The position numbers and the translations under genes were made by a program. DNA of 20,000 nt from IMG/VR virus record IMGVR_UViG_3300030202_002298, positions 50,723 to 70,722 of that record. One strand, written 5' to 3'. This stretch comes from an uncultured virus (IMG/VR IMGVR_UViG_3300030202_002298) (lineage: Duplodnaviria; Heunggongvirae; Uroviricota; Caudoviricetes). Position 1 is the stretch's first letter, and each line of letters starts with the position of its first letter. Shown here one piece after another: positions 1 through 20,000 of this stretch. The notes beneath the pieces were generated by a model. The model was not told where the DNA came from. It ran no database searches and saw only the letters and a program-made list of their open reading frames with translations.

Positions 1-714
1 GAATTGGCTGCACACAAAAAATTAACGGCATCACTCGTGGCTGAATTCGAGAGAATGAAAGAAGCGACAGCAACAACGAAGAGAACAGTGTTTTGGTTCG
101 ACAGAAAACGTCAACACAACGATTTAAAGTTCGCTATAGTGGATAACAAATACCCAGCCGGATATGAAGTCTGGGAGGATGGTGAACTCATTGAGCGGTG
201 GCATTGGAAAATTGAGGGGAACCCTAAAACGGATCAGTACGGCGATTATATATTCAGATGCGTTTCAACGTACAATAAGGAAGGTGAATACTCAGGTTTT
301 AAACAATATGTCATGGCAAATTATCCTGACGACGAGGGTTTTATCATGCCAATTGACAATGCTCTGGAGTACACAGTGAATATAAAAAAGAACTGGCTCA
401 AACTAAAGTCATACGACAAGGACATGAATGGGATGGAAATTATGTGGAAGGACGGAAAGGTACTTCATACCTATTTACATGAACGGGATTTTATGCACTC
501 AAAACAAGAAGGAACTGATCGCGATTTGTATTCAATTATTCAGGAACCTGATCAGTTAACATACATGGAACACCTGTCAAAAATGTTTCCGTTCATTCAA
601 AATGATGTTCTCGAACCGTTCAAAAAATCTATACGTTATGAAAAAATCAAGGCAGCACAATCGGCTTTAAACAAAAGCAAAGCGGCGGTTAAAAGTGTTA
701 GGAGGAAGGGGTAA
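1..714 (+). CDS. Hypothetical protein (at least 236 aa, possibly 5'-truncated) directly upstream of the integrase
   Basis: The frame is open to base 1 (GAA TTG GCT...), so the TTG at 4 may not be the true start. Its TAA (712-714) abuts the integrase ATG (715). No family recognised. Confidence 0.7.
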   Translation, partial: ELAAHKKLTASLVAEFERMKEATATTKRTVFWFDRKRQHNDLKFAIVDNKYPAGYEVWEDGELIERWHWKIEGNPKTDQYGDYIFRCVSTYNKEGEYSGFKQYVMANYPDDEGFIMPIDNALEYTVNIKKNWLKLKSYDKDMNGMEIMWKDGKVLHTYLHERDFMHSKQEGTDRDLYSIIQEPDQLTYMEHLSKMFPFIQNDVLEPFKKSIRYEKIKAAQSALNKSKAAVKSVRRKG

Positions 715-2103
715 ATGGCTCAACCGTGGATTAAATGGGTGCGAGGTTCTAAACAAGAAAACTTGATCGCAGAACTACTTGGTATCAAATATAAAAAAGA
801 AGGCGGCAAATATAAGGTTCGTTATTGGACAAGTACGATTCACAGAAATGCGTTTCGTAAAGACAATGCCAGAAAACACCTTCCAGTATTAGACAAGTTC
901 ATTAGAGACAGAATTAAAGAGTATGAAGATCATCAACCTGTTGAGCCAAAAGTAGCCAAACAATATGAATCCGATGAGCTTCTAACTGCTAAACAAATAC
1001 TCAAGGATTGGAAGATAACAACTCCCCTATTAACATTTGTTAAACAGCAAGCAGAACAAGAGTTTAACACGAACGGAAAAACACAAGACATCTCACCTAA
1101 AGAGGCGTACAAACAATACCGTGTATCGAAACCTCTGGCACACAACTCAATTCCCGCTGCTCAAAAAATATTCAAGGATGTGTTCAGTCCATTTTTCGAC
1201 ATGGAAATGCGGAGAATTAATTTTACTGATATAGATAAACAGTTGATTGCTCTCTGGAAATCTAATGACTGGTCTGTCGATACATTTAATAAACGAGTCA
1301 CGGGTACATCAGGTTTTCTAAAATGGTGTCAGTCTTCAAAAAGGCGATACATTAGCATGAGTTGGCCTGTTAGCTCATTGGAACGTATGCCAGAGGAAGA
1401 ATATGAAACATTAGCTGGCGGCATAACCAAATATTTCACACCTGACCAAACCAATGATTTACTACATTCTGCAACAGGTCGAGATACAGACAAATATCAA
1501 TTCGATTATATGCCGAATCTCGCAACCCAATTTTTTGCAGGGCCGCGACCTTTCGAGACATACCGTCTACCGTTGGAAAATTTCAATATGGAGGATAACA
1601 CGGTTAAACTGGTTAAATCAAAACTAGGAGACAACAAACATCGTTTAGTTAAATTAAAACCTAACCTAAAAGCCATAATTCTCCCCTACTGGGAAGCTCA
1701 AGGAGGAAGAGGTTTAATGTTACCGCCAGAATTAAGGGTAAAACTAGAACCATTGTTCTATGGGCTGAATGCTGAACTTGCAAAAACAGGTAAAATTAGA
1801 AACAAAAAAGCGAAGAGGGAATATGACGAATGCCTAGCTTCTATCGGTGGTACGTTTAGTCAGGCATTTAAGCGAATGGCCGAGCGGCTCAAATTAGATT
1901 GGATTCGTGACGGATCTAGGCACAGCTATGGCTCCTATAGGTACAATCAGTTATTCCATCAAGATAACTCCGATAATTTTATATCAACAAAAAACACTCT
2001 CAAAGAAGAGATGGGTACAAATGTTGAGAACCTGGAAAAACATTATGTTGGTAGCGGTATTAAACTAGCTGAGGTTAACCAATATTTTTCTGTGGGATTG
2101 TGA
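715..2103 (+). CDS. int: Tyrosine recombinase / phage integrase (462 aa)
   Basis: Catalytic motifs appear in the expected order: FFAGPRPFE (R), KSK (K), DGSRHSYGSY (xxxR-H-S box), EEMGT (LGH-equivalent), LEKHY (Tyr nucleophile). The central helical region resembles a core-binding domain. SD AGGAGG at 700-705. Adjacent to a tRNA and an att-like region. Confidence 0.93.
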   Translation: MAQPWIKWVRGSKQENLIAELLGIKYKKEGGKYKVRYWTSTIHRNAFRKDNARKHLPVLDKFIRDRIKEYEDHQPVEPKVAKQYESDELLTAKQILKDWKITTPLLTFVKQQAEQEFNTNGKTQDISPKEAYKQYRVSKPLAHNSIPAAQKIFKDVFSPFFDMEMRRINFTDIDKQLIALWKSNDWSVDTFNKRVTGTSGFLKWCQSSKRRYISMSWPVSSLERMPEEEYETLAGGITKYFTPDQTNDLLHSATGRDTDKYQFDYMPNLATQFFAGPRPFETYRLPLENFNMEDNTVKLVKSKLGDNKHRLVKLKPNLKAIILPYWEAQGGRGLMLPPELRVKLEPLFYGLNAELAKTGKIRNKKAKREYDECLASIGGTFSQAFKRMAERLKLDWIRDGSRHSYGSYRYNQLFHQDNSDNFISTKNTLKEEMGTNVENLEKHYVGSGIKLAEVNQYFSVGL

Positions 2104-2180
2104 TGGTAGCTGCGAGTGGAATTGAACCACTGACCTGAAGCTTATGAGTCTTCCGCTCTAACCAACTGAGCTACGCAGCC
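2104..2180 (-). tRNA. tRNA-Met(CAU), elongator-like, with encoded CCA
   Basis: The minus strand folds as GGCTGCG TA GCTC AGTTGGTTA GAGC G GAAGA CTCATAA GCTTC AGGTC AGTGG TTCAATT CCACT CGCAGCT A CCA (77 nt). Anticodon CAT is at 2146-2144. The 5' end resembles bacterial elongator tRNA-Met. It lacks the C1:A72 mismatch and the three G:C anticodon-stem pairs of fMet. Ile2 cannot be fully excluded. Confidence 0.93.
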
Positions 2181-2221
2181 ATCGAAGAAGGGCAATTTAA
2201 ACACACTTGTCAATCGTTCTC

Positions 2222-2465
2222 AATCCTCCCAAATTCCAGATCTAGGGGGGATGAAAGGGGGATTTCTAAAAACTGGTCAAAATTGCCCCACCTTAAACTA
2301 CTGCCTATAAGATAGTTAGATGCCTTTAGACTTCTGGCCTCATAATCCAAAATTCTTGTAACTATAAACCACTGATAATCAGCAACATAACCCTCTCTGT
2401 TTTTTTTGTGATTATGTCATTTACTCCCATTTACTCCCATCCATAGGGGGGATTTAGGGGGGATT
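2222..2465. other. Putative attP site (arm-type repeats flanking a 7-bp core)
   Basis: Tandem 11-mers TAGGGGGGATG/AAAGGGGGATT (2243-2264) and TAGGGGGGATT x2 (2444-2465), plus a degenerate inverted copy (2222-2232). In the centre, an imperfect inverted repeat GACTTCTGGC-[CTCATAA]-TCCAAAATTC (2329-2355, 7/10 pairs). An IHF-like stretch lies at about 2367-2390. Non-coding and next to the integrase. Confidence 0.75.
2418..2440 (+). repeat. Tandem 10-bp direct repeat CATTTACTCC x2 (+CAT), candidate excisionase/RDF site
   Basis: CATTTACTCCCATTTACTCCCAT lies between the putative core and the right arm repeats. Function is inferred from position. Confidence 0.55.
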
Positions 2466-2714
2466 TTAAGGCAGGGTTGGATGACACTCCCAGCACCTAT
2501 CTAAGATAGTATCTCTTTTGACTAGGAAGTCTGCTCCCCTCTCCTCTTCGTACCCTACATAATGAACAATGAGCTGCTGCTTGTAGACCTTGCACACTGC
2601 CTCATGAGCCTGATCTTTTGCTCTACTAAAACTGGATGCCGTTAATGCCGCCAAGATCCCGATAATGGCGATAGCTATGAGTAGCTCCATTATGGTCATT
2701 CCAGCAAATCCCAT
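2466..2714 (-). CDS. Short type IV pilin/pseudopilin-like protein (N-methylation motif) with C-terminal CxxCH
   Basis: G|MTIMELLIAIAIIGILAAL matches the class III signal (E at +5). SRAKDQAHEAVC...Q resembles PVC-type prepilin-like proteins. Ends RCWECHPTLP. An alternative ATG at 2699 overlaps the upstream stop (ATGA). Confidence 0.85.
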   Translation of the reverse strand: MGFAGMTIMELLIAIAIIGILAALTASSFSRAKDQAHEAVCKVYKQQLIVHYVGYEEERGADFLVKRDTILDRCWECHPTLP

Positions 2715-3088
2715 GACCCTTCAAATTTGTAGAATCTATTACCTGTGCCATTATAGATTTTCGCTGTTAAACCTCTAACCTCATCAAACGGAATAATCCA
2801 GAATTTCAATACGTCGATTGCACAGCATATAAAATAATCAACATCACCTGGATCGTAACGCTTTTTAGCGGAGAGTCCGTGAGCTAATTGAAACTGATAA
2901 TGCGGCCTGTTGTCTTTGTATTTGTGTTGCTGAAGGGTTGCCTTAACTTGGATACGAAGGAACCTTTGCCGTTTGACCACTAATAGATCAAAACGGGCGG
3001 TGTCTGAAAGGGGGTGTGCTACGCTCCAACCGTGTTCTATCAATTTCTCCGCTACCAGCAGTTCCCCCCGCTGGCCAGTGGAACGCAC
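2696..3088 (-). CDS. PD-(D/E)XK endonuclease (group I intron-associated / PDDEXK_5-like), 130 aa
   Basis: Motif pattern G..GE..V...L...GW.V..P..D..RFDLLV......RIQVK and Y....VDYF. GTG start. Confidence 0.85.
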   Translation of the reverse strand: MRSTGQRGELLVAEKLIEHGWSVAHPLSDTARFDLLVVKRQRFLRIQVKATLQQHKYKDNRPHYQFQLAHGLSAKKRYDPGDVDYFICCAIDVLKFWIIPFDEVRGLTAKIYNGTGNRFYKFEGSWDLLE

Positions 3089-4559: not shown

Positions 4560-5186
4560 TTAGCTTGTTGCTTGTGTGTCTACTGGTTCCATTGTGGATG
4601 CCAGCATTTGTGTAAATCTTGCTAATCCCTCGGCAGGAGAATTCTGGGTACATTCCACGTCAATGCTGTAACGAGCTGAGAAGTCTGATGATCTAATGTT
4701 TTCAGAATGTGATGTAACTGTTCCTGTATGTGAATTGGAATGAGATCCACCTGCATCAAACCCTACTCCCCAGAAGTGACCACTTACAGATGCATGAACT
4801 TCAGACTCCGAATGATCCTCTTGTTTATTGTCGTGTGACTCTGTGTTTTGGGAATGACTCTTAACCTCCATATCAAAATGTACCTTAACATCAGATATAG
4901 ATAGGTTAGGTATAGTTACCATCGTTAGTAACGGCATCTTCACCATTTGTTTTAATGGTTTGGTTTGACCTTTGATTAGCCGTTCGACTTCTACATCAAC
5001 GGTACGGGTCCTGGTTTTCTTTGGATCTTCTGGATCAGGCTCAAACCCAATCGAGGATACAAAGTCCAATGTTACTCCAGCTAATTTCTTCTGGCCTTTA
5101 GCCGCTGACACTAGAGGGTCAATTATGAGTTCCGAAAGCGGGAGGCCTTGGAAATCTTTTAGTTGTTTATCGTCTGCTCCTGGCAT
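4560..5186 (-). CDS. DUF2589-like protein, long form (208 aa)
   Basis: Pattern recognised by eye: F.GLPLSELI..PL..AA..Q..LA.....F...IGF, V.MPLLTMV.IP.L.I..V.V.FDMEVK, a Ser-rich hairpin, SARYSI.V, PAEGLAR....L. Confidence 0.82.
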   Translation of the reverse strand: MPGADDKQLKDFQGLPLSELIIDPLVSAAKGQKKLAGVTLDFVSSIGFEPDPEDPKKTRTRTVDVEVERLIKGQTKPLKQMVKMPLLTMVTIPNLSISDVKVHFDMEVKSHSQNTESHDNKQEDHSESEVHASVSGHFWGVGFDAGGSHSNSHTGTVTSHSENIRSSDFSARYSIDVECTQNSPAEGLARFTQMLASTMEPVDTQATS

Positions 5187-5196
5187 AATGATTTAT

Positions 5197-5586
5197 TTAT
5201 ATTGTTGGTATTAGTTTTATTAGGTTATCTCCGATACGAGCCATGCCTTCAGCTTGATCCGTACTGGAAAATTTTATCTTTACGTTAGCCATCTTGGATT
5301 TTCTTAGTTTACCCAAACAGCCAACTGCTTTGTCTCCGTCATGGTCAAGGTTCACCTGTAGATCAACCTCGCATGATTCTATTTTTAGTGTGTTATGAGG
5401 AACCAGCACGAACAATGGAGCTTCTACATCTTTATCGTTAAGCCTAATCTTCACTGTCTTAGCTGATCCGTCCTCATTAAAGTACCCTTCCCTTATATTA
5501 TTTGAGAGAGACTCCTCCACTGATTTTTGAGCCTGTACCACTGCTGAGTACAAGCTATCGAATATGTTCTGTAATTCTCCTGCCAT
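5197..5586 (-). CDS. DUF2589-like protein, short form (129 aa)
   Basis: L..I...L..AVV.AQ..V....YF.EDG....V.I.....V.APL..LVPH..L.I....V.L and KIKF......EGMARI...L...IP. Same architecture as the downstream paralogue but without the long hairpin. Confidence 0.78.
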   Translation of the reverse strand: MAGELQNIFDSLYSAVVQAQKSVEESLSNNIREGYFNEDGSAKTVKIRLNDKDVEAPLFVLVPHNTLKIESCEVDLQVNLDHDGDKAVGCLGKLRKSKMANVKIKFSSTDQAEGMARIGDNLIKLIPTI

Positions 5587-5597
5587 TTTAAAAAATG

Positions 5598-8500
5598 TTA
5601 TATCTGTCCTTCATACTCAACTTCGTATCTATCAATATCTGCTCGCTCTCCGTAAATTGTGTAGTAGCAATCAATAGCGTTACCATCTGCCTCGCCTATT
5701 TTTATCTCTATATTACTAGCAGAAATTACAAACAGTTTTTGGTATGAACCTTTAGGGGTTAGCTGAACTGTAACTGTTCCATCTCTAACCAACCCTGCCC
5801 AATAATCTGGTAGATCAATAGTGTCACCTTGAACTTCACCACGTTGGTAAACCCCAATCTCTGGCCCTTCCAATGAGGAGTGGCGAAGATTCATTCCTTC
5901 TTTTGTAGGGTGAGGTATTTTAAATGATTTACTGTACCCGCCTATGTCACCGTTAGAATAAATATTGCCACTAAAGAAAGCCGTGTAAGAACTATTCGGG
6001 CTGGTTCCAACGCCTAGTCTTGTAGTTATCTGAGCATCTCCAACAACGTGTAGGTTCTCATTACCAGGAGATGTCTTGTTAACAGTTAGTGAATGATCAG
6101 AGCCATTGTAAAATAAACGTGGAGCTTGTTTAACTGTAGTGCTGTCTGTGTAAACCGCTATGTTTCCATTGGTTGTGCTGCTAGTAACTGAGCTTGATGA
6201 AACTGTTCCACTACCACTGCCTCCTCCGCTTTGGTCTGCCCATTCTAATGTGGTTCCACTACTAGGTGCTGTAAGAACTTGCCCCGCACTGCTAGGTGCT
6301 GACGTTGGAAATGTGTATGCATCATGGAACCTAATTCCAGAGTTAGATACGGACATACGACTATTACCCCCAGAGGTAAATTCCATTGTGTCGTTTGCGC
6401 TTCTAAAAATACCTGTGTTTAAATCATTTATAAATGTGATACCGGGATTACCAGCACTACCATCTCCTGAACGGAAGAATGCTGAAAAAGTATTTAACCA
6501 TCTGAGATTATATGCACCCGAATCTCTCACTGCATCAGCGTAAGGGCCGATGTTTCGCTCAAAGTAAGTTTGTTTATTGAAATAAAACGATGGCCGATCC
6601 GTCATAAAGTGACAGAAAGAACTATTTTGTGGCCCTGTTTGTAACCAGCCATGATCAGTGACTGTTATTAAAGAAGTGTTAGTGGAATTATGTTGATATG
6701 TGTCCGCACCGAAATATAACTTATCAGATATTACAACATTACCTCCAGAGTCTACACGGAATTTTTGTGATCCGTTTTCATCAATGTAGAGCAAAGGATA
6801 ACCCGCAGAAGTTCCAGACGAGTTGACGCTAATTCGCACACCATACGGAGTTGTGCTGCTTGTTTGGAAATGCCCAGCATAGGTTGTTCCACTTGTGACT
6901 GCATGAATTTTTGAGTCAGGGGCGTTAGTCGCTATACCTAATCCTGTGTTATTTACAAATGCCCTTGCAGTGCCTCCCGTTACAAACCCAATACTATCCG
7001 CAGAATTTTCGTATATATATGTGTTAGAACCTCCGTCTAGGTAAAACGCTTCAGAAGCACCCACAAAGACTTCACCATTAGCTTTAACACCAAATTTATA
7101 AGTCCCATTAACATTAACACCGAGAGCCATTCCAGAACTCCCCGGCTCATCCATTCGCACTAGCAACCCACCTGAGTTTCCACTAGTTGCAGTGTTGTAA
7201 ATTTTTGAAACCCAGTTGCCTGTTAATGATTTCTGAACGTGAAACGGGTACGATGGAAAAGCTCCTATGCCTAAAGCGTTTTGGATTTTTATGTTCCCAT
7301 CATTGTAGATCATAAAATCCGCAGTCCCACTTAAATCAGGATCAGTGGTAGCACTTGAACTTCTGATAATTGCAAACTTGTTTGTACCGTATGCATTAGT
7401 TACCAAGAACCTTCTAGCACTAGATGTGTGTCCTGTGTTTGCGTGAAATAATAAACCTCCGTAGGAACCGTAGTTGCTTGTTGTTGAGTAACCCGCTAGT
7501 CGCAATGCGTTGTTATCTGGATCTCCATTAACTTCACCTATTGTTAAACCTCGCCCCGAAATGTGCTTTATGTACGAATCACCACCACTATTTTCAAGTT
7601 GCAACGCTCCCGCATTTGTTATGGTTAATCGGTTAGTATTATTTGTTGCAAAATTGATAGCACCATTTTCGTAGTTATGTATTCCAGCGTTAAGGCCAGA
7701 TAAATAAAATTCAAGTCCGTCACTAGCTCCCGTGCCACTACTGTTGTTTTGCAGTGCCATTTTTACGGGAGTGGTGTCGTAAATTGTTAGTTTTTTAGTC
7801 GCAGCAGAAAGGCCGATTCCTAAACGACCTCGGTTAGAAACAAACACACCAGTTCCAGTTGGGGTATAACAAGCTAAATTTGGTACGTCATTGACGATGT
7901 TGTTTGCTGTATCAATTGACAAACCATAAGCACCTCCGTTGTTTTCAAATCTGCCAGTCCAGTTAACAGTAGTCTGTTGTACGTCCAGTAAATATCCTGT
8001 TTTTCCAATGATGCTTACCTTGCCGTTAAATGTAGCAGTGTCACCTATTCTACTGTGTTGTTCATGGCAAGATATGTTGTCTATGTTAAAATTACCTCCA
8101 GCAGTGTTAGCCCAGAATCCTAAAGTTGTGTCTGTTGGAACAATTTCTATAGTGTGCGTTCCATTACCGTAACTAACATATCCATTTGAACTAGTGTAAG
8201 CACTTCCACTTCCAAGTTTATTACCAATCCAAATATTTGCTAGACCGCCACTTCCAACTTGAATTGTAAATGAGAGTTTAAATGTTTTGCCAGAATCGTT
8301 AGCAACAAAAACACTGTCTTGAGCTAAAGTTCCGTTACTAGAATCGTCAAATGATGCAACTCCATTGAGAATCTTCCACGGAGCAGAACTTGTGGTGATT
8401 GCAACATTGCCTCCATTATACATTGTCCATGAACTGGTACTCGCCATAGCACCATTGGATATTTTGTCAGTAGTGCTGTGAGTTTTAATTTCACCTGAGA

Positions 8501-11500
8501 CATCTAATTTAGAATTTGGTAAAGTATCTGCTATCCCCAAATTCCCATTTCTCAGTGTCATTGTGTTTACCCCTCCATTAGCTGATCTGCAATAGAGAGT
8601 GTCGGTGTCAAAATAAATATCCGAAGTTCCGCTATAACCGAATCTGTAGGAACTGCCGTTAGCATTAGCAATCTGAATTTTAGAGTCAGGAGCAGTTACC
8701 CCTCCAATGCCGCAATTTCCATTTGTATCAATTACAAAACGAGGGCTACTGTCTAGGTTGCCAGCATTGTTTTCGCTGATAAAAAACCCAGCACCATTTT
8801 GGCCAATAGATGTTGAACCTCCTGACCCTTTAAATATCAGAGGGACTTCACCTTTGCTTGCATCGCCAATCGTTATCCCTTGTTCACTTGCGGCTGGAGT
8901 TACTTGGAGAGTTCCTGTGATTGTGCCGCCAGATGAGTTTAGTATTAGTTTCTGACTGTTCTGAACTCTGAACTCTAAGTTGCCGCCGATACTGTCAACA
9001 ATGCCTGAAGTGTTCCCGTTGGAGTATGTTAGCTTAATTCCATACGTTGAACTTTGTGTGAAGTTTGCTGCACCGTTTGAATCTATCTCAAATTTCTTAC
9101 TTCCGCCGCCAAAACTACTGCCTGTCCAAAATTCTATTCCTCCTTGACCGTGAAGTTTTAATCCTGCTGTAGAATATTTTAGTGCTAATCCTCCACGGTT
9201 CCCCCCGCTGTCAGCTAATATCAAGTAAGGTTGCCATGTATTTGCTGTTTGTGAAACATTTCTAACGTAAACAGTACCAGTGCTATCTGAAGAATTTCTA
9301 AAACACGCATGACCAGCACCCGCCGAATAAAGACCTAAAAGCTCATTGCTTGAAGATATGGTAGCTGCGGTTCCTATGCCTAAAAAAGAACCACTCAGCG
9401 TCATTTGCTGAGAGTTGTTGGTGAAAAACTTTAACGTGGAATTTGTAGCTTCAATTCGCTCATGTGAGTCAGCCCATTGCAGTGAGTATCCGTGGTCTAA
9501 GTTTAAATGACTGTTATCAATTATTAAATCGCCACTTAAATTAGTATTACCTCCTGATGAAACAGAAAAATAATGTGATCCGTTTTGCTCAACTTTAAGT
9601 AAAGGATAACCTGAAGAAGTTCCTGACGAGGAAGCGTTAATCCTCACACCATACGGAGTTGTGCTACTTGTTTGGAAATGTGCAGAATAAGTTGAACCAC
9701 TGCTAATTGTATGAATCCTAGAGTCGGGTAAAGTTGTGTTTATACCAACATCTCCATTTTTTACGATCAGTCCGGTGTGAGTGGTAGCCCCATTAGAATC
9801 TACCGTTGTAAGCTGTGCATAACGGTCAGACGAAGCGTTGTTACCTTTAAGAAGTAAAGCACCTCCGTAACTTCCACTCCACATTGGGAGGTTGTTTCCG
9901 ATCTGTATTTTTCCATCACCCCGCACAAGCATTAGGCTAGTGCCGTTACTGTATGTTGTATTGTTTGTTCTAACGTGGAGTACCTCTACATCTGAACCAT
10001 CGTTAACCGTTGAAATTACAGTCCCATCATACTCTGAGGTGTTGCCCGAATTATGAAGCCATGCAACAGGAGTGTTAGCTGCACCTGAACTACCAGAGAC
10101 AGTTAAAGGGCCACCAATTGTTGTTGTATTCCCACTTGTCCCGCACAAAGCAACGCCTCCAGCCCGTTTAACAACCAAGTCCATGTTGTTGACGTTTGGT
10201 TGATATACATACCAATCACCGTTGCTAGTCCCATATGCAGGGGTTGTATTATAAGCCATGCCCATCCGTGCGGAATTAGCATAAGTGGAGTTGGTAAAAA
10301 ATATTTCACACCATTGGCTGCTCTTTACCTCAATGCCGCATCTGGCAGAGGTGTTACCGAATTGAGCCATTTGTTGGCCTGATCCAGTTGCGGTTATGTT
10401 ACCACTAAATATAGCGTTCCCGTTATACAACGTCAGAACATTGTTGCCTCCCGGTTGGCCACTCGTTTCACCTATTTTAAATGCTCCTGAATCAGTCCTA
10501 TCAATACCTACACACCAGTTAGTTGTGTTGTCACCGAAGGAAATGTATGGGTCGTTATTCCCTGAAAATAACCTAAGTTTTGTTGCTCCCGAAGATTTGG
10601 AAACTGTTAAGTCACCACTAGGTATTTCTACATCACCAGCATTAAGTAACTTCAGTACTGTTTTTGGAGAACCAGTGTTATCGGTGATGAAATGAAAATC
10701 TCCTACATTTGTAGCGGTTTTATATTGATATGCAATTCGTCCATCAGCATTTCTCGCTCGGAAATCTAGATTAGCATAAACATTGTCAGCCTCTGTTGTG
10801 TTGTAAATTAAAAACCCCTGCCCAGCACCTCCACCACTTAACCCATCTTCTGTTACATTTGTGCCTGAACGTGCAAAAACTACAGAAAGAGTTTTATTCG
10901 GTGTTGTGCTACCTATGCCTACCGAATCACTACCGATAGTCATCACCGCACTATTGTTGTCCCAGATTTGCGTTTTTAAATTACTAGCATCAGCAACAAT
11001 GCGTCCGACTATAGTATGATCTAGTCTCCTCCAGATTAACGCTGACGATGTTCCTGTGTTTGTTGGTACATCAATGTAGGTTGTGTTATTAACCTCTAGT
11101 TGACCTGATAAAACGCCATTGTTGTCCTCGGTTAATTCAAACGCTGTATTGCTGTCTGTGGTGTTTCTAAATTTTAGTCCAGTGCCAGCGACATAAACCT
11201 TCCAATCATCTGTACCACTCTCCGCTGAAACTAATGAGAGTGCGGGGTCGCTTGATGTAGAAATTAAAAGATCGCTGCCAATAGTCCCACCATTGAACGA
11301 ACTACTTGTCTGAATTACGTTACCACTAGAATCAACTGCTAGATATTTGGCTACCGTTCCTGTTAAACCACTGCCACCGTATTTGTTTAATTTAAGCTGC
11401 CCCGTTTCCCCGCTTACCTCTAACAACCAGTCAGTAATCGCCCCAGATTGCCCATGCCTACCTATACTGAAGTCTGCTCCTGAAGTGTTATTATTATTAC

Positions 11501-12881
11501 TGTCTAGATTTACAAACAGTCCTCCGAAAGTATTAATTCGTAAGTCATCCGCAGCATTACCTGAACTGTTACGACTACCAATAGCGTGTTCCGTGTGACC
11601 CCCGCCATAAAATGTTATATAAGGAGCCTGAGATGCGAAGTCTATATTTTGAGCAAAAGTCACCTTGCCGTTGCTGGCTATAGTTACCCTCTCCGTAGCG
11701 TCAGTATAAAACTTTAGATAATCTCCGCCATTGCTCCCGACTATCTTTGCTTTGGTTCCACCCCACCTAATGCTTTGCCCGTCATCAAGAAATGAATCAC
11801 CATTGTTTATTCTAACATCGCCATTGACTTGAAGTCTGTAGCTAGGTGTGCAAGCGATCCCTACCTTGCCATTATCAGCAACAGTGAATCTTGTAGTGCC
11901 AGCGGTTTGCACATAAAAATAATCATTGCTGACAAACATACCAGTATTCGCGTCTGTATCGCCAATATTGTAACCATCTGAGACTGCTATACGGCCGTTG
12001 TGAACATGAAGCTTTTGGCTTGGCTCAATTCCTAAACCCAGCGATCCATTCTGCATGAAATACCACTTGCGAGTACCGTTAATGCCGATAAACAAATCGG
12101 ATGAACCCATCTCTAAGTCGGCATAGGTTCCATTCTTGTTTATTCTAAGTGTCGGGTTGTGAGAAGCAGTATAAATTTCTAGGTCTTTAGCTGGGGCTGA
12201 ACTGCCTATGCCAACGCCCGTTGATTTTACAACAAGGTGATTCTCGTTGAACGTAGCACTAGCATTAAATTTTAAAGCAGTTGATGAATGATCCCATCCG
12301 ATTTTTGCATTAGCTGATGTATCAGAAAAAAGTATGTAGTTGTCATGCGAAGTGCCGCCTTTAACCTCAATGCCAGTATGACTAGACGTTTCAACTGTCA
12401 GGTTGCCCGTAAGTGTGCCGCCAGTTGCGGTTATTGCTCCACTAAATGTAGCGTTACCGTTTTCTGACCCGTCCAAAGTCAAAGCAGTTTTTACAGTGCC
12501 ACCATCCTTGATCTTAAAAAGAATATCTTTGTCATCAATAGGGTTTTGAATAACAAAGTTGTTTGAAGAGTTTTGTAAAATCCCAAATCTAACTCCATCA
12601 TCTTTAAGGCTAATAGTATCGCCACCAGCGTCTAAAACAATTCCATCAGCGGAGTCTATTATAAAGTCGCTAGTTGACGCGATTGTTCCACCGATAGTTA
12701 AAGTGCCACTAAGTGTGCCGCCAGCTAGGGGGAGATGATTGTTTAACTGTAGAACACCATTGGCAGCGGCATTGCCGACATAGAGTTTACTGTCATGTAG
12801 ATTAACTGCTAACTCGCCAGCCGCTAAACCGCTAGGTACGCCAGCAGTTGCCTTGCGCTTAATCTGAAGTGTATTAGCCAT
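5598..12881 (-). CDS. Long tail fibre / receptor-binding protein (2427 aa)
   Basis: N-terminal Mtd_N-like domain (LQIKR...PSGLAAGELAVN..D.KLYVGN). Many G.vGIG...P...L.v fibre repeats; Gly/Ser/Thr/Asn-rich. CBM-like insert at about 8061-8468. C-terminal KSFKIPHP...LRHSSLEGPE.GVY.RG...LPDYW domain typical of fibre termini (putative chaperone). Confidence 0.92.
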   Translation of the reverse strand: MANTLQIKRKATAGVPSGLAAGELAVNLHDSKLYVGNAAANGVLQLNNHLPLAGGTLSGTLTIGGTIASTSDFIIDSADGIVLDAGGDTISLKDDGVRFGILQNSSNNFVIQNPIDDKDILFKIKDGGTVKTALTLDGSENGNATFSGAITATGGTLTGNLTVETSSHTGIEVKGGTSHDNYILFSDTSANAKIGWDHSSTALKFNASATFNENHLVVKSTGVGIGSSAPAKDLEIYTASHNPTLRINKNGTYADLEMGSSDLFIGINGTRKWYFMQNGSLGLGIEPSQKLHVHNGRIAVSDGYNIGDTDANTGMFVSNDYFYVQTAGTTRFTVADNGKVGIACTPSYRLQVNGDVRINNGDSFLDDGQSIRWGGTKAKIVGSNGGDYLKFYTDATERVTIASNGKVTFAQNIDFASQAPYITFYGGGHTEHAIGSRNSSGNAADDLRINTFGGLFVNLDSNNNNTSGADFSIGRHGQSGAITDWLLEVSGETGQLKLNKYGGSGLTGTVAKYLAVDSSGNVIQTSSSFNGGTIGSDLLISTSSDPALSLVSAESGTDDWKVYVAGTGLKFRNTTDSNTAFELTEDNNGVLSGQLEVNNTTYIDVPTNTGTSSALIWRRLDHTIVGRIVADASNLKTQIWDNNSAVMTIGSDSVGIGSTTPNKTLSVVFARSGTNVTEDGLSGGGAGQGFLIYNTTEADNVYANLDFRARNADGRIAYQYKTATNVGDFHFITDNTGSPKTVLKLLNAGDVEIPSGDLTVSKSSGATKLRLFSGNNDPYISFGDNTTNWCVGIDRTDSGAFKIGETSGQPGGNNVLTLYNGNAIFSGNITATGSGQQMAQFGNTSARCGIEVKSSQWCEIFFTNSTYANSARMGMAYNTTPAYGTSNGDWYVYQPNVNNMDLVVKRAGGVALCGTSGNTTTIGGPLTVSGSSGAANTPVAWLHNSGNTSEYDGTVISTVNDGSDVEVLHVRTNNTTYSNGTSLMLVRGDGKIQIGNNLPMWSGSYGGALLLKGNNASSDRYAQLTTVDSNGATTHTGLIVKNGDVGINTTLPDSRIHTISSGSTYSAHFQTSSTTPYGVRINASSSGTSSGYPLLKVEQNGSHYFSVSSGGNTNLSGDLIIDNSHLNLDHGYSLQWADSHERIEATNSTLKFFTNNSQQMTLSGSFLGIGTAATISSSNELLGLYSAGAGHACFRNSSDSTGTVYVRNVSQTANTWQPYLILADSGGNRGGLALKYSTAGLKLHGQGGIEFWTGSSFGGGSKKFEIDSNGAANFTQSSTYGIKLTYSNGNTSGIVDSIGGNLEFRVQNSQKLILNSSGGTITGTLQVTPAASEQGITIGDASKGEVPLIFKGSGGSTSIGQNGAGFFISENNAGNLDSSPRFVIDTNGNCGIGGVTAPDSKIQIANANGSSYRFGYSGTSDIYFDTDTLYCRSANGGVNTMTLRNGNLGIADTLPNSKLDVSGEIKTHSTTDKISNGAMASTSSWTMYNGGNVAITTSSAPWKILNGVASFDDSSNGTLAQDSVFVANDSGKTFKLSFTIQVGSGGLANIWIGNKLGSGSAYTSSNGYVSYGNGTHTIEIVPTDTTLGFWANTAGGNFNIDNISCHEQHSRIGDTATFNGKVSIIGKTGYLLDVQQTTVNWTGRFENNGGAYGLSIDTANNIVNDVPNLACYTPTGTGVFVSNRGRLGIGLSAATKKLTIYDTTPVKMALQNNSSGTGASDGLEFYLSGLNAGIHNYENGAINFATNNTNRLTITNAGALQLENSGGDSYIKHISGRGLTIGEVNGDPDNNALRLAGYSTTSNYGSYGGLLFHANTGHTSSARRFLVTNAYGTNKFAIIRSSSATTDPDLSGTADFMIYNDGNIKIQNALGIGAFPSYPFHVQKSLTGNWVSKIYNTATSGNSGGLLVRMDEPGSSGMALGVNVNGTYKFGVKANGEVFVGASEAFYLDGGSNTYIYENSADSIGFVTGGTARAFVNNTGLGIATNAPDSKIHAVTSGTTYAGHFQTSSTTPYGVRISVNSSGTSAGYPLLYIDENGSQKFRVDSGGNVVISDKLYFGADTYQHNSTNTSLITVTDHGWLQTGPQNSSFCHFMTDRPSFYFNKQTYFERNIGPYADAVRDSGAYNLRWLNTFSAFFRSGDGSAGNPGITFINDLNTGIFRSANDTMEFTSGGNSRMSVSNSGIRFHDAYTFPTSAPSSAGQVLTAPSSGTTLEWADQSGGGSGSGTVSSSSVTSSTTNGNIAVYTDSTTVKQAPRLFYNGSDHSLTVNKTSPGNENLHVVGDAQITTRLGVGTSPNSSYTAFFSGNIYSNGDIGGYSKSFKIPHPTKEGMNLRHSSLEGPEIGVYQRGEVQGDTIDLPDYWAGLVRDGTVTVQLTPKGSYQKLFVISASNIEIKIGEADGNAIDCYYTIYGERADIDRYEVEYEGQI
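6738..6920 (-). repeat. Internal duplicated fibre module, copy 2 (copy 1 at about 9546-9728)
   Basis: Ungapped offset of 2808 nt. Bases 6837-6872 match 9645-9680 at 35/36. Both copies encode HFQTSSTTPYGVRI...SSGTS.GYPLL....NGS..F.V.SGGN. Confidence 0.9.
9546..9728 (-). repeat. Internal duplicated fibre module, copy 1
   Basis: Partner of 6738-6920 (DSRIH...SGGN versus DSKIH...SGGN). Confidence 0.9.
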
Positions 12882-14945: not shown

Positions 14946-17900
14946 TTAGAAGCCGATTGCGGTACTAAAAGCCTGACGCTTAATTGCTTCTGATGAAGGA
15001 AGGTCTAAGTCTCTTGTTATCTGGCTTCTAAATGAAGTCGCAGTTTTAGGTTTCTCTAGTTTTCCTTCACTTGGGGTTATCCCTAAAATCGTTCCATATT
15101 CGTTTATATTCCTGATCGTCTGCTGTACTGACGCTTGGCCATCTGCATTCATTGTATCCAGTAATTCGTAGTATTCTGCGGCTGTAGGCATTGTTTGGAA
15201 TACATATCTTAATGGGTGGTATGCTTGGAAACTACGCTTCACACTGTCTATTGGGTCTTCTTTGCCCATCGCTTCAGCTTCCAGCACTGCTCTTTGCCAT
15301 GCTTTATCAAACCACATCTCGTCATCCACGACTGCTGCCATAAGCATTTCAGATACCCAAGGTCGCATCCTAGTTGATGTAATCCCTTTAGCTCCAGAGA
15401 ATGTGCGAACATCGAGATCCATATATCTACCTGCTGCCCTGAGATAATTGTTTGTAGATATTCGACTAGCCATTGCGTATTCCTGCTCAAACATCGGCTC
15501 TGATCCTGCCTTGGCTAACCCATTGTTTAAGATCTGAGCGTACTGAAGGAACCCTGCACCACCTAAAGATGTGGCTAATGGTCTGTAAACCGTGGCGTAG
15601 TTTGCACTCCGTTGTGCTGCCATATTGGTTATGACCTTCTTAATAGTGCCTAACGTATTCAAAGCATACACTCGGCTATCAATACTTAGCTCTCTGCCAG
15701 ACTCATTATTCAAGGTAGTGTTCATTATCTCACCACCAAATCCGAATGTTCCTACCCTATCAAATCTTTCTATTGCTATCTGAAGGGCATTGTAAGGGTC
15801 AGTCTGGATCTCCTCTAGGCTAGGCATTCCGTCACCTTTAAATATCAATCCCTTACCAGCTTGTAAGCTACTCTTCTTACCTAGTATCTCTTCGTCATAT
15901 TCGTCCCTCAAGTAAGCGTAGATTAATCCTATAGGGAAGACAGCCAAGTAAGCTTTAAGTGCCTCCACGTTGCCTAGTAGGTAGCCGTATGAGTTCCTGT
16001 CAGTTGCGACTGTCTTATTGACATCAACAAACTTTTGAACACTCCAGCCAAGTAAAGGCATAGAAGCGTAAGCAAATCCGTTAGTCAGGAATATAGGAGA
16101 TCTAGTTGTTACATCTGTTTCCATCATTACCTGAGATACAGTTGTGTGGGCTAAAGCCATATACAGTGCATTCTCAGTAGGTAAATAGCTGGCTGCTAGT
16201 GGATCTGCCTTCATGTCTGTTTTCTTTCTGTTGATGTAGTCGAGTGCTACTTGTTCAACATTGAACCCAGACTCAAGCAAAGTGTTATACATATGGTGAT
16301 AAGCCTTGCTGTTATTAAAGAACAAGAACGACTTACCGTAACCCATCTCATCTAATGCCTTATTAAGTCCAGCTTGCCCAAGGGCTTTCTCGTTAAAGAT
16401 CATCCCGTGCTTCTTGTAGACTTCCATAGCTTCAGGATTGTTCTCGATGTACTCAGCGGCATTTACGATAAAGTTCCTGAACATCTTCCAAGTACTGATT
16501 GTGTTAGCCATTGATGACTGCTTGGCAATCTGTGAGAAGATAGCTTGTGGTCTAAATACTGGGAATGCTCCTCTCCCTTCCTCGGCAGATCCTATTCCTG
16601 TTTCCAAGAAAGCTCTGATACCTCTGGATGTAGTTTCAAAAGCCTTACCTATTAGACCTTTGCTAACCATCTCATCAGCCATGTTGGATTGGAACTCAGT
16701 GCGTAATCTTCTAAAGAACCCTCCCTCTAAAGAAGCTGTTGCATCATCAAGTCCAATGTCCATCATCTTAGCCATGTCATCATGGGCAAACTTGATACTT
16801 CTATTAAACATCTGGAAGAAACTACCAAACCCTAAGCCTAGGGAATTAGTTATATTATTCTTCATCATCTGGAACCCGAATCTATTTAGCCCCATTCTTT
16901 TCCAAGGTTGTTCTACAATTGAAATGGTATCAATCAAAGCTGTTCCAGGTGACTGCACGATTAACCCTGTCATGGATCTAATCAAATCATTGAACACGGA
17001 GAACTCCATTGCAGAATCACGCTCTTTAGATATGTAGGCTTTAAAGAAACTTTCGATCTTCTTCATCTGCCTTTGATTGTTGATTGCGTTTCTTAAGTAC
17101 TTACCTGTGTATTTTGCACCTTTGCCCTGAAGTTCCTTAGCAAGTTCATCATACTTCTTAATGTACATTTTGCGGCCCCATCCAGTAATCCTAGAAACAA
17201 GCCCCATCTCCCCAATCTTTTCCTCTATTTGTTCGTGGAAACTAGCAGCATCATCCATCTCGCTATTAGCAAGTGCGAAATCGTTATTAACTTGAACCAT
17301 ATCCCTACCAAATGCGGATTCAGCAGCAAGGTTCTTGACGTATTGATACATCTTTCTTTCTGTAAACTCTGCATAATCAACCCACTCAAGAGGGAAGTCA
17401 TTGAACTTACGAGCATCCATCATCACATGAATAGGAATAGCCCTCTTGTCTCCTAGGAAACCGTTTGCTTCATCTGATTGAGAGATAACACTATTAAGTT
17501 TACCGTAGAATCCTTGTAGTGTGTGTAAGACATTAGCTTGGAACTCTCTGGAATCTTCAGCACTTACCTTTGCACCAATAGTAAGAGTATCAAGGAAACC
17601 TTTCATGTTAATAGAATTATCCCTTAAATCAAAAGCAGCTTCCACTAAACCTTGAGGCAGTGGGTTTCCGTCCTCATCTTTGAATACACTTTTTCCAGGT
17701 CGTTTAACAATTTTTGACACGAAGTTATCCATAGTGCCTATACCCCCCTCATACATTTGTAGTATGTAATTGTTAAATTCTTCCTCAGACATTTCCTTTA
17801 TTTGGGAAACGCTTTTTTGAAATTCTTTTCTACCCCATACACCTTTAAGTCTATTGTAAACATTTTTGGCTACAGAGTTCGTCTGCCTCATTGTGGTAGT

Positions 17901-20000
17901 TAGGCTTGATCCAATTCTTCCACGGAAATAATTACCTTCACTTTCATATACCATTACCCCCATGTCATCAGAGATCCCAGCGATCTGCCTAGAATTAATT
18001 GCAGTCTGTTTATAGAAAGCTCTAAGCTCTGCTTCTGATTTATCAATAACAGGTTTTAATTCTCTAATTTTTCTTAATTCATTTAACCAAGTGTCAATTA
18101 ACCTATCTTCTCCTATATCCCTATTCGGTGCATCATTTAGAATATCTCTTCTGTGATGGAAGAACTGCATAGCTTGGTGATAGAACTGCTTTTTAAAACC
18201 ATTCATATCCCTAATCACGCCAGCTCTAGCGACAGCGTTCTTTGCTTCAGTTAATTTCCTGCTCCAAACTTTACCGTTCCTGACAGCAGACTTAGCACCA
18301 CTACCTGCAAAGGAAGCTATGTATGTTGCGAACTTCTTAAGCTGTGCTGCTATCTTACTTGCCGCAGGTGATCCAGACATCTCAAGCATATCAGTCAAGC
18401 TGCCCATCATTCTAACCACAAAACTGTTTGATAATTCTCTATGATATTGGACGGCTTGGATTTCAGTCATCCTGTCTACCATCCTTTTAATCATGTAGTA
18501 CTCTCCACCACGACGACTTTCAGGCTGTTTCTGCAACCAACTGTTCATCTTCTCGATGTCTTGTACGATACCTCCGATTTCTTTTATATCTCTGAGGTTA
18601 AGTGTCTTTTGATTATCTTCGTTCTTAAGTTCATTTATTGTGGAATCAGGAGATGGAGGAACTACATATAAAGCCCCATCAACTGCTGCCCATTCTTTAC
18701 CAGAACTAGACGCCCCTCTGAACCAATCAGGAAAGATACTCTCTCTTCTGAATAAAGAACCAATTCTCTCAAGAGTTTCTTCTAGGTTAGGCATTACTGC
18801 GTCATAGATCTTTAAGTCTCTTTCAGCGATAACTCTTTCTTGAAATACATTACGAGATTTTTCTAACGCTTCAGTAAACTCAAACAGAGCTATCTCTGCC
18901 TTCCTTGTAATACGAGTAAACGCACCGCTTCTGGTTCTGTCTCCATCCACATATGTACGCCAACCCTTCAAGGCGTTTTCGATGTTTCCATCTATTGCAG
19001 TTTTTATTGCCGTATTAAATGCTGTAGTCCACCCATCTACATCAGACTCCCTTCTCAATGAAAGAAGACTCATTAATGATTTTTGCCTACGAGCCACAGA
19101 TATTGCTAACGCGAGCATCGCTGGATCATTGAATACTTCGAGTAAAGGATCACCTAATGATTCAATAAACTCTTTTATCTTCTTAGCATTTCTCCAAGGG
19201 ATAGCACCAAGAGATGCTTCATTGCTAACTAGCGTGGCTAACCTTTCAAATGCATCAGTAATTCGTTCTGCCCTAGCTCTGTTTAATGCTCGGTCAGTTG
19301 CTTTACCTCTACCTACAATTGCGTCTCTTGCTTTTTGAATCTCTTCATCAGTAGCAGTCTCACCCATTTCGCTTAGGGCTTTGCTAATCATGTTGTCCGT
19401 CTTCTCTGCTTTGCCTTTTACTACTTCATCAACTGTTTCAACAATTCTGTTCTGAATAATTTTTAAATCTTTATAGTTTGAAGCAAGAAGGTTTAGTTTT
19501 ATTTGCAGTTCCTTATGTCTGCTAACCGCTGATGACTTAACATCAAAAGATAACTGAGTGTCAGCCTCTATGCGTAGTGAATTTATGTTAGTCTCGACCT
19601 GGCGTAGTAGTTTATCAAGAGCTTCAGCAGCACGGGGTCTGGCCTCTTCGACTTCGAGATCTTGCAGTTGTGTGTTCGCAAGTGACGGGTCGCCGGATAT
19701 TTCCAAGGCTTTTTTAATCCTCTCATCAGGTAGTTTATTATTAGTAATTTCCTTAATGAAGTTCTCCTTACTCATCTTCCCGTACACACCACTCGTTCTT
19801 CTGAATGAATCGTGTAGGTTTGATAGTATATCTTTTAAAGCATTGTTGGTTGCTATGATCCTTTGTGCTTCCATTCGTACAACAGCAAGATCAACTTGGT
19901 CATACATATCACGATCAGGAGCAAACATTACTTTAGTGAAAAGAAGATTATGCTCTACTGCTTCAGGTGAATCACCGACAACCTCCTTATACTGTACAGT
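14946..20000 (-). CDS. Giant alpha-helical protein, probable internal virion / DNA-ejection protein (>1684 aa, 5'-truncated)
   Basis: The frame stays open from the ATG at 19928 to the window edge (24 more codons, TVQYKEVV...). Charged helical composition with a C-terminal region of Gly/hydrophobic segments (SPIFLTNGFAYASMPLLGWS; YLAVFPIGLIYAYL), as in podovirus-type ejection proteins. Precedes the tail genes. Confidence 0.7.
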   Translation of the reverse strand, partial: TVQYKEVVGDSPEAVEHNLLFTKVMFAPDRDMYDQVDLAVVRMEAQRIIATNNALKDILSNLHDSFRRTSGVYGKMSKENFIKEITNNKLPDERIKKALEISGDPSLANTQLQDLEVEEARPRAAEALDKLLRQVETNINSLRIEADTQLSFDVKSSAVSRHKELQIKLNLLASNYKDLKIIQNRIVETVDEVVKGKAEKTDNMISKALSEMGETATDEEIQKARDAIVGRGKATDRALNRARAERITDAFERLATLVSNEASLGAIPWRNAKKIKEFIESLGDPLLEVFNDPAMLALAISVARRQKSLMSLLSLRRESDVDGWTTAFNTAIKTAIDGNIENALKGWRTYVDGDRTRSGAFTRITRKAEIALFEFTEALEKSRNVFQERVIAERDLKIYDAVMPNLEETLERIGSLFRRESIFPDWFRGASSSGKEWAAVDGALYVVPPSPDSTINELKNEDNQKTLNLRDIKEIGGIVQDIEKMNSWLQKQPESRRGGEYYMIKRMVDRMTEIQAVQYHRELSNSFVVRMMGSLTDMLEMSGSPAASKIAAQLKKFATYIASFAGSGAKSAVRNGKVWSRKLTEAKNAVARAGVIRDMNGFKKQFYHQAMQFFHHRRDILNDAPNRDIGEDRLIDTWLNELRKIRELKPVIDKSEAELRAFYKQTAINSRQIAGISDDMGVMVYESEGNYFRGRIGSSLTTTMRQTNSVAKNVYNRLKGVWGRKEFQKSVSQIKEMSEEEFNNYILQMYEGGIGTMDNFVSKIVKRPGKSVFKDEDGNPLPQGLVEAAFDLRDNSINMKGFLDTLTIGAKVSAEDSREFQANVLHTLQGFYGKLNSVISQSDEANGFLGDKRAIPIHVMMDARKFNDFPLEWVDYAEFTERKMYQYVKNLAAESAFGRDMVQVNNDFALANSEMDDAASFHEQIEEKIGEMGLVSRITGWGRKMYIKKYDELAKELQGKGAKYTGKYLRNAINNQRQMKKIESFFKAYISKERDSAMEFSVFNDLIRSMTGLIVQSPGTALIDTISIVEQPWKRMGLNRFGFQMMKNNITNSLGLGFGSFFQMFNRSIKFAHDDMAKMMDIGLDDATASLEGGFFRRLRTEFQSNMADEMVSKGLIGKAFETTSRGIRAFLETGIGSAEEGRGAFPVFRPQAIFSQIAKQSSMANTISTWKMFRNFIVNAAEYIENNPEAMEVYKKHGMIFNEKALGQAGLNKALDEMGYGKSFLFFNNSKAYHHMYNTLLESGFNVEQVALDYINRKKTDMKADPLAASYLPTENALYMALAHTTVSQVMMETDVTTRSPIFLTNGFAYASMPLLGWSVQKFVDVNKTVATDRNSYGYLLGNVEALKAYLAVFPIGLIYAYLRDEYDEEILGKKSSLQAGKGLIFKGDGMPSLEEIQTDPYNALQIAIERFDRVGTFGFGGEIMNTTLNNESGRELSIDSRVYALNTLGTIKKVITNMAAQRSANYATVYRPLATSLGGAGFLQYAQILNNGLAKAGSEPMFEQEYAMASRISTNNYLRAAGRYMDLDVRTFSGAKGITSTRMRPWVSEMLMAAVVDDEMWFDKAWQRAVLEAEAMGKEDPIDSVKRSFQAYHPLRYVFQTMPTAAEYYELLDTMNADGQASVQQTIRNINEYGTILGITPSEGKLEKPKTATSFRSQITRDLDLPSSEAIKRQAFSTAIGF

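Follow-up and report, generated by a model that had tools for sequence, protein, structure and literature searches.

A candidate module for tRNA-dependent lysogeny in an uncultured marine phage: divergent integrase, tRNA(CAU) gene and an attachment-site core resembling an anticodon arm

How would a temperate phage integrate into a transfer RNA (tRNA) gene when the center of its own attachment site imitates the anticodon arm of such a gene and carries neither of the halves from which the gene could be rebuilt? The question is raised by a locus in an uncultured marine phage (Caudoviricetes), within the final 20 kb (positions 50723-70722; hereafter the window, whose numbering is used unless a position is marked as genomic) of the 70,722-bp IMG/VR virus record IMGVR_UViG_3300030202_002298. 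An integrase gene (int), a complete tRNA gene with anticodon CAU and a candidate phage attachment site (attP) with a core confined to an anticodon-arm look-alike follow one another there, a combination suggesting that the phage probably breaks a host tRNA gene and brings a spare. By analogy with characterized phages, we put at about 0.5 the probability that this region is a lysogeny module, one with which a temperate, uncultured marine phage would practice tRNA-dependent lysogeny at a host tRNA(CAU) gene.

The candidate core, CTCATAA, lies 12 nucleotides (nt) from the midpoint (2354) between two pairs of G-rich repeats and, as could be read directly from the letters in agreement with the first-pass annotation, is identical to the anticodon loop of the neighboring tRNA (2142-2148, minus strand) and sits within an imperfect inverted repeat, the arms of which, TTCTGG (2332-2337) and CCAAAA (2347-2352), are complementary at 5 of 6 positions. 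Fourteen copies of the heptamer occur on the two strands of the genome, a frequency at which the inter-pair region (2265-2443) would be expected to contain 0.029 copies and the 15 nt to either side of its midpoint 0.0053. Flanking arms that form an inverted repeat of 5/6 or better have a background frequency of 0.0097 (about 1% of genome positions) and accompany two of the 14 copies, namely, the tRNA's own anticodon arm and the candidate core, with the same one-base offset in both. The joint chance of finding the heptamer and the inverted repeat near the center is about 5e-5 to 3e-4, roughly 100-fold below that of the heptamer alone.

The likeness to a tRNA had been thought to end with these 7 nt, and it proves to be longer. 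Searching IMG/VR for CTCATAATCCAA followed by a T-loop motif at tRNA distance returned 77 loci, 68 of which are tRNA(cat) genes according to ARAGORN, with the 5' stem strands TTGGA (32 genes), TTGGG (18), GTGGA (11) and TTGGT (7). Window positions 2334-2351 (CTGGC-CTCATAA-TCCAA-A) agree with the tRNA(CAU) arm class TTGGA-CTCATAA-TCCAA-A at 16 of 18 positions, including 13 contiguous identical bases at 2339-2351, and the Rfam tRNA consensus coincides with the core over the loop and the stem's 3' strand. Judged by its sequence, the center of the attP therefore appears to be a look-alike of the anticodon loop and 3' stem strand of a tRNA(CAU), without the rest of the tRNA. No D arm, T arm or acceptor stem was found in 2265-2443, where Rfam at E ≤ 10 gave two noise matches, neither of them a tRNA, and the tRNA's 3' half aligned to the right flank no better than did shuffled sequences (p = 0.75), which upholds the earlier statement that no tRNA 3' half follows the core. 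Lacking any tRNA-like segment in this interval, the attP side offers a common core too short to rebuild a tRNA. Two apparent tRNA remnants were rejected: a relic of a 5' half to the left of the core (CTGCCTA..AGTTAGA), with p of about 0.01-0.017 in end-free alignment and p = 0.29 in local alignment, and the 9-mer AACCACTGA shared by 2125-2133 and 2367-2375, which has the wrong orientation and spacing.

The paired 11-bp G-rich repeats described in the first-pass annotation are present on both sides of this core with a period of 11 nt, and repeat finding unites the left and right pairs in one 23-nt family, the two members being 87% alike and 201 nt apart. Plus-strand copies of GGGGGAT number four in the 70,722-bp genome (at 2246, 2257, 2447 and 2458), forming two tandem same-orientation pairs, and a single reverse copy is located at genome position 35399. 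Four copies in a 20-kb window are unremarkable as a count (17 of 200 shuffles reach four), so the signal lies in their clustering into two same-sense tandem pairs. In arrangement, the pairs resemble arm-type sites on either side of a short core and are putative sites of the integrase (Int), and a candidate attP of approximately 225 bp (2243-2465) best explains the arrangement. A further tandem repeat adjoining the right pair (Table 1) is possibly the site of an accessory protein. The module is colinear in two relatives that are 92% identical (L002 and L009), which have the right pair unaltered and a single change, in the spacer, in the left pair; the inter-pair region has diverged about as much as the surrounding coding sequence.

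Between int and this attP lies the tRNA gene, whose CCA end follows the int stop codon without an intervening nucleotide. Its stems include a G1-U72 pair and an A31.G39 mismatch, the anticodon stem being GAAGA/GCTTC. In bacterial initiator tRNA-fMet, positions 1 and 72 are mismatched and the anticodon stem ends at its bottom in three successive G-C pairs; by these sequence features, the phage tRNA is not initiator-like. Its closest phage counterparts are tRNA-Ile(TAT) (86.6%) and tRNA-Ile(GAT) (85.7%), compared with 75-78% for tRNA-Met genes of phages and 77-78% for those of Escherichia coli (the best E. coli match). The isotype would be elongator Met or Ile2 and, with a body as Ile-like as it is Met-like, may be of the Ile2 type. 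Of the earlier designation "complete tRNA-Met," the completeness stands (Table 1), whereas "Met" was read from the anticodon alone and the body is no less Ile-like than Met-like. The promoter-like sequence just upstream of the tRNA is conserved in relative L002.

The reading of open reading frame (ORF) 715-2103 as an integrase has been borne out, although its product, P0001, matches nothing in Pfam (E ≤ 0.01), PHROGs or PDB sequences. An exhaustive phmmer search with P0001 yielded 29 proteins, of which two are full-length relatives (P0002, 46-47% identity; P0015, 31%) and the rest fragments or weak matches; PF00589 is carried by 18 of the 21 matches that were scanned, two of these weakly. P0001 itself does not reach the PF00589 gathering threshold, and its relatives P0015 (16.8 bits) and P0014 (17.1 bits) also fall short of the cut-off, 27.1. 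Its homology to tyrosine recombinases rests on profile-profile comparison and fold: hhalign of the P0001-family profile with a profile of 11 PF00589-type integrases gave a probability of 99.94% (E 3.6e-37, 341 columns), and all six Foldseek matches at E ≤ 0.001 of an AlphaFold model of mediocre quality (predicted local distance difference test [pLDDT] score, 62.6) are tyrosine recombinases (XerA and IntI). The next matches are Tn1549 Int, XerH, Brujita Int and lambda Int (E 1.4e-3 to 3.2e-3), and most of the matches listed are tyrosine recombinases, the list also including the repressors MrpR and YopR. Candidate catalytic residues located by profile alignment are R277 (GPRPFE), a K-containing hairpin at about 300-310, R402 (DGSRHS) and Y443 (EKHY); the two histidines are replaced by D and T, where the aligned canonical subfamily has D and S. 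P0001 is, then, a very divergent phage-encoded tyrosine recombinase.

Integrases of the heterobivalent, lambda type have int directed towards attP and arm repeats flanking a core in which an inverted repeat surrounds an overlap of about 7 bp; lambda does not target a tRNA. The direction of int and the layout of repeats and core are alike in the window, as is a predicted N-terminal domain of three strands plus helix: residues 1-71 of P0001 are modeled as helix, three strands and helix (H13-22, E25-29, E32-38, E48-53, H56-71; pLDDT of the domain model, 72), which would have the general shape of arm-binding domains. Differences are that this domain has no sequence match or significant fold match to solved arm-binding domains and that no Xis or other recombination directionality factor was identified in the phage. 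On the best explanation, P0001 would be an integrase of the heterobivalent type.

The IMG/VR record is of the linear class with a CheckV completeness of 100%, has a GC content of 41.4% and holds this single tRNA gene. Nearly all of the genes lie on the minus strand, including a replication and recombination set of lambdoid type (Sak annealing protein, exonuclease, SSB, RusA, O/DnaD-like initiator, DnaB and HU); other genes encode CobS/CobT-like proteins, the large terminase and very large structural proteins. The int gene is the last of a four-gene plus-strand block (genome 49630-52825) that converges on the minus-strand structural genes across 2104-2465, and because the gap between such convergent blocks is the usual location of attP, we count this position in favor of the attP assignment.

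Table 1. Features of the int-tRNA-attP region of the window
Feature	Position in window	Strand	Evidence or remark
339-aa ORF, 3' part	1..714 (genome 50417-51436)	+	Function not assigned; third in the four-gene block of int
Divergent tyrosine recombinase P0001, 462 aa	715..2103	+	Profile-profile and fold evidence; stop codon 2101-2103
Complete tRNA, anticodon CAU, encoded CCA	2104..2180	-	ARAGORN anticodon cat; Rfam RF00005 66.5 bits, E 3.4e-14
Sigma-70-like promoter, TTGAGA, 18 nt, TAAATT	2194..2223	-	Consensus scan 9/12; just upstream of the tRNA 5' end
Left pair, putative arm-type Int sites, TAGGGGGGATG + AAAGGGGGATT	2243..2264	+	Sequence, repeat finding
Candidate attP core, CTCATAA (2339-2345) within imperfect inverted repeat	2332..2352	+	Sequence and IMG/VR tRNA comparison
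Tandem CATTTACTCC, twice (candidate accessory-protein site)	2418..2437	+	Repeat family D7, adjoins right pair; two substitutions in L002
Right pair, putative arm-type Int sites, TAGGGGGGATT twice	2444..2465	+	Identical in L002

Systems of this kind are already on record, and the mechanism that we propose is not new. tRNA-dependent lysogeny was described in 2024 for actinobacteriophages (Guerrero-Bustamante and Hatfull, mBio 2024, PMC10865867); according to the available part of that report, a tyrosine integrase recombines attP with the bacterial attachment site (attB) in a host tRNA gene through a common core of 8-17 bp, pairs of putative arm sites lie on either side of it, integration leaves the tRNA unrestored, and viable lysogens require a cognate phage tRNA. 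A core at the anticodon loop is described there as common for mycobacteriophage attachment sites, and the examples include Fionnbharth (K4), Cluster L, Gaia, in which the phage tRNA is downstream of int, and the Gordonia phages OneUp and Mollymur, assigned to tRNA-Ile2-CAT in Table 2 of that report; Boilgate and Omega serve as cases of a canonical tRNA-targeting attP carrying the tRNA 3' part. How prevalent the strategy is beyond actinobacteriophages is, in its authors' view, a question that calls for study, and they cite the Lactobacillus johnsonii prophage Lj965, where the tRNA is not rebuilt and a cognate tRNA is encoded, as a possible case.

As far as that account extends, the window shares with the actinobacteriophage systems a tyrosine integrase, pairs of putative arm sites around a short core, a core at the anticodon loop, an attP devoid of a tRNA half for rebuilding and a complete phage tRNA near int, and, by analogy, it appears to match every feature of tRNA-dependent lysogeny that a free phage genome allows one to read. 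The published phages carry a tRNA of matching anticodon; here, there is a tRNA(CAU) with a promoter-like site, which may match the isotype of the target as Met or Ile2. The candidate core spans 7-13 bp rather than the published 8-17 bp. In contrast to the phages so described, the present one is a marine uncultured phage known from free-phage sequence, with an integrase below the PF00589 cut-off, a tRNA stem (GAAGA/GCTTC) unlike the stem imitated in attP, and a tRNA gene located between int and attP and inverted relative to the core. In Lj965, possibly a non-actinobacterial instance of this strategy, the integrated prophage and its junctions were observed, whereas the phage here is available in free form only.

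On this model, Int would bridge the predicted arm sites and the core, and strands within CTCATAA(TCCAAA) would be exchanged with those of the anticodon loop in a tRNA(CAU) gene of the host (Met or Ile2). The host gene would stay split, because attP carries neither tRNA half, and the phage tRNA, intact at about 160 bp inside the prophage end and with its own promoter-like site, would supply the lost function. The recombinase homology, the tRNA, the repeat architecture and the mimicry of an anticodon arm are shown by the analysis; we infer from them that Int binds the repeats, where the crossover falls, which host gene is targeted and that the lysogen relies on the phage tRNA.

What a canonical counterpart looks like can be judged from a tandem G-rich motif search of IMG/VR, which returned 69 loci in 50 distinct contexts, most of them unrelated to integration; only three of the 50 adjoin a PF00589 integrase (the relative L069, L082 and L060). 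Locus L060 (IMGVR_UViG_3300025900_000004, L060:2792-4233) belongs to a phage of 58% GC and has a clean canonical attP directly downstream of a canonical 403-amino-acid (aa) integrase (P0043): two GGGGGGATT / GGGGGGATTTTCCGGGGGGATT pairs, 209 nt from each other, enclose a tRNA-Arg(CCG) 3' fragment that spans the anticodon arm to CCA, including the T arm and the acceptor 3' strand (Rfam, 27.2 bits). Both loci have two tandem G-rich pairs about 200 nt apart next to int, with an anticodon loop midway (85 and 95 nt from the pairs in L060; 75 and 99 nt in the window); they differ in that L060 has a true tRNA 3' part, whereas the window has the loop and one stem strand. P0043 shows no significant similarity to P0001 apart from family motifs, and the repeats of L060 point the other way with respect to int and core, so we treat L060 as an analogue and not as a relative: it would illustrate, by the layout of a canonical attP, what the window is missing. 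Sixteen IMG/VR contigs of about 35% GC (L022, L025, L027, L031, L036, L040-L042, L046, L048, L051, L052, L055, L057, L070 and L086) share an identical tandem, AGGGGGGATTATAGGGGGGATT, set in CATTAA..AAAGAAGTA and located at about position 3001 in most of them; in the two of these loci that were scanned (L022 and L027), a gene for a C-5 cytosine methylase adjoins the tandem, and no integrase was found nearby.

Several results weigh against the proposal of tRNA-dependent lysogeny, beginning with the integrated form. The first-pass annotation had called for reading the prophage junctions (attL and attR) of integrated relatives, and no attB or junction emerged from genome contigs, two metagenome loci or four marine sequencing runs. 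A profile search of genome contigs with the integrase alignment gave two matches only, both spurious. The metagenome scan gave two colinear phage contigs, and all three related loci (L002, L008 and L009) are colinear phage forms. In the four runs, contigs bridge the tRNA, repeats and center in the phage form (X3 record 4 [1836-2492], X5 records 13 and 14, X6 record 21 and X7 record 30), and there are no joints, with none of the loose ends listed falling at 2339-2345; these runs are Logan assembled contigs from which rare variants are dropped, and an integrated form, if rare, would therefore have escaped notice. At 13 of 13 loci of remote relatives of the integrase subfamily, there is no tRNA or tRNA fragment within 2.5 kb, which weakly lowers the prior for a tRNA target. 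The N-terminal domain of P0001 has no Foldseek match at E ≤ 0.001; its best VIA Z score is 5.5, and the AP2 DNA-binding domain comes second (Z 5.3, root-mean-square deviation 2.6 over 57 residues), within the noise range. The genome encodes a second, canonical tyrosine integrase of 276 aa (genome 24179-25009, minus strand; L004:5182-6009; PF00589 E 9e-17, phrog_1 E 1.7e-36). ATA makes up 37% of the Ile codons of the phage (21 per 1000 codons), so that a CAU/Ile2 tRNA could be ordinary translational cargo, and the match to the anticodon-arm motif was noticed after the fact.

The codon usage leads to one way of reading the locus differently, in which the attP is real and the crossover lies elsewhere between the pairs, at a non-tRNA target, the tRNA(CAU) being cargo for AUA/AUG codons or against tRNA-directed defenses and the likeness a coincidence or relic. 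The Ile-like tRNA body and the 13 remote loci fit this reading, and another inverted repeat with a 7-nt spacer is available at 2375-2391/2399-2415 (I3). We nevertheless regard it as unlikely, if a serious contender, since coincidence would have to overcome the low joint chance of heptamer and inverted repeat, a 13-nt run equal to real tRNA(CAU) arms and the location of the genome's only tRNA gene exactly between int and attP, which we count against it. Were the tRNA gene itself the region of homology to attB, the crossover would fall inside 2104-2180, a whole tRNA would stand at both junctions and nothing would be inactivated. That the tRNA directly follows the int stop codon is in keeping with this, as is a 5' half at least 88% like very abundant marine metagenome tRNA genes, yet both repeat pairs lie to one side of the gene, 63 and 264 nt away, and the 3' end of int has no GGGGGAT; the four runs have no excess depth on the 3' half (2104-2141) beyond the phage contigs; and L060 and the published attPs, as far as the available part of the report covers them, have the core between the pairs. 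We consider such a crossover very improbable. The excess depth at 2142-2180 in the runs belongs to the tRNA 5' halves of other organisms.

A more radical possibility is that the G-rich repeats are not arm sites at all and instead are operators of the tRNA promoter, iterons or a partition site, and that P0001 is perhaps not the lysogeny integrase, that part being played by the 276-aa recombinase, or there being no integration. The presence of the second integrase speaks for this, as do the scarcity of integrases beside tandem G-rich motifs in IMG/VR (3 of 50 contexts, with many others near terminase or methylase genes), the D and T of P0001 where most family members have two histidines, and the recombinase-fold repressors among its Foldseek matches. 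On the other side, the replication initiator and DnaB are encoded about 8 kb away and no ParA/ParB was found; the region is convergent, making operators for protein genes unlikely; the R, K, R and Y of P0001 align with those of canonical integrases sharing the D and S/T substitutions; and the geometry of the pairs equals that of L060. The 276-aa integrase gene lies within the minus-strand operon, just upstream of genes for a helix-turn-helix protein and the large terminase, and has no tRNA-like attP beside it, the 54 kb of genome outside the window being without tRNA-like sequence at Rfam E ≤ 1. Taken together, we hold the view that the repeats are not arm sites to be improbable, and tRNA-dependent lysogeny at a host tRNA(CAU) is the reading that we carry forward.

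If it is true, every lysogen would depend on the prophage for one codon, the phage tRNA gene would be linked to lysogeny rather than to codon usage, and tRNA-dependent lysogeny would be extended to marine hosts, in a widespread pelagic phage. The fuller claim, which we advance tentatively, is that of a phage outside Actinobacteria, with an integrase family absent from Pfam and PHROGs, whose tRNA-dependent lysogeny would involve a tRNA(CAU) of the host that is possibly its only tRNA for AUA, a tRNA-Ile2. Routine annotation would miss both parts of such a module, as Pfam does not score the integrase and the attP has no long identity to a host genome; int, the tRNA and the 225-bp attP form a compact test set. 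The core recurs, inverted and 190 bp distant, inside the phage tRNA gene, where the N-CTCATAA-N stem has identical geometry. Speculatively, Int might also flip the segment between the core and this copy, or the divergent stem of the phage tRNA may have evolved to avoid self-recombination with the core.

The phage appears in many marine data sets. The 90%-identity cluster of the integrase has 12 member sequences, its representative being on 14 contigs from marine sources, and among the marine runs listed, 20 from 11 studies contain at least part of the region, seven of the 20 holding at least half of the sampled words; two of the 20 may be the source sample, and the read layout was examined in four. 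There is no close cultured phage, and P0001 had no tblastn match among cultured phages and plasmids; no locus came out of viral-contig scans with the relatives P0002 and P0015. Attempts to infer the host failed: the best matches of TerL are 21-29% identical and those of DnaB at most 35%, to phages of unrelated hosts, and a look-up in the cluster atlas produced integrase-like clusters of mixed taxa only. The two spurious matches in genome contigs, both at Prochlorococcus loci, were rejected as antisense chance matches inside a tgt-like gene, and window positions 2181-2560 have no significant match in those two genomes. In 201 cyanobacterial genomes, the pattern CTCATAATCCAAAA had 11 matches, compared with 13 for the reversed control, and the six loci that were fetched are without a tRNA. 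A loose-end consensus from run X7 (four contigs, agreement of 0.75) reads, in the tRNA sense, TCCAT after the loop and is a lead only.

The other members of the int block offer few clues to their roles. The stop codon of the 339-aa ORF directly precedes the int start codon; this ORF has no Pfam match at E ≤ 0.001 and no PHROG match at E ≤ 1e-5, and at E ≤ 0.5, it has one sub-threshold Pfam match only. The second gene (113 aa; genome 49965-50306, plus strand; L005:11965-12303) has a weak ribbon-helix-helix-like match, NikA-like, with an E of 0.003, below the cut-off, and is, from this sequence likeness, a possible candidate for a regulator or directionality factor. The first ORF is incompletely readable because of a 10-N run at genome 49658-49667 (L005:11658-11667) and is possibly a regulator as well.

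Immediately beyond the right repeat pair, an 82-aa ORF (2466-2714, minus strand) has a type IV prepilin-like N terminus (N_methyl E 8e-4, below the cut-off; phrog_3433 pilin E 1.3e-5). L002 and L009 are without it, 231 nt from 2 nt past the repeat pair being replaced by 10 nt. In runs X3 and X6, the 75 nt at 2465-2540, corresponding to the 3' end of this ORF, have a summed depth of about 90, compared with about 6 for the phage. This depth is due to 11-16 short contigs, which have different left flanks and differ at 2504-2525; many related genomes appear to share the stretch as a conserved segment. The 20-mer at 2479-2498 has no exact match in IMG/VR. Elsewhere in the genome, a type-P1 twister ribozyme-like match extends over the full model length at genome 39429-39501 (minus strand; L005:1429-1501), with 44.4 bits (E 1.3e-6) against an Rfam gathering score of 67.2. 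Two adjacent DUF2589 proteins are encoded at window positions 4560-5186 and 5197-5586, and two very large minus-strand ORFs, at 5598-12881 (2427 aa) and 14946-19928 (1660 aa), lie among tail-fibre-like and head-decoration-like genes.

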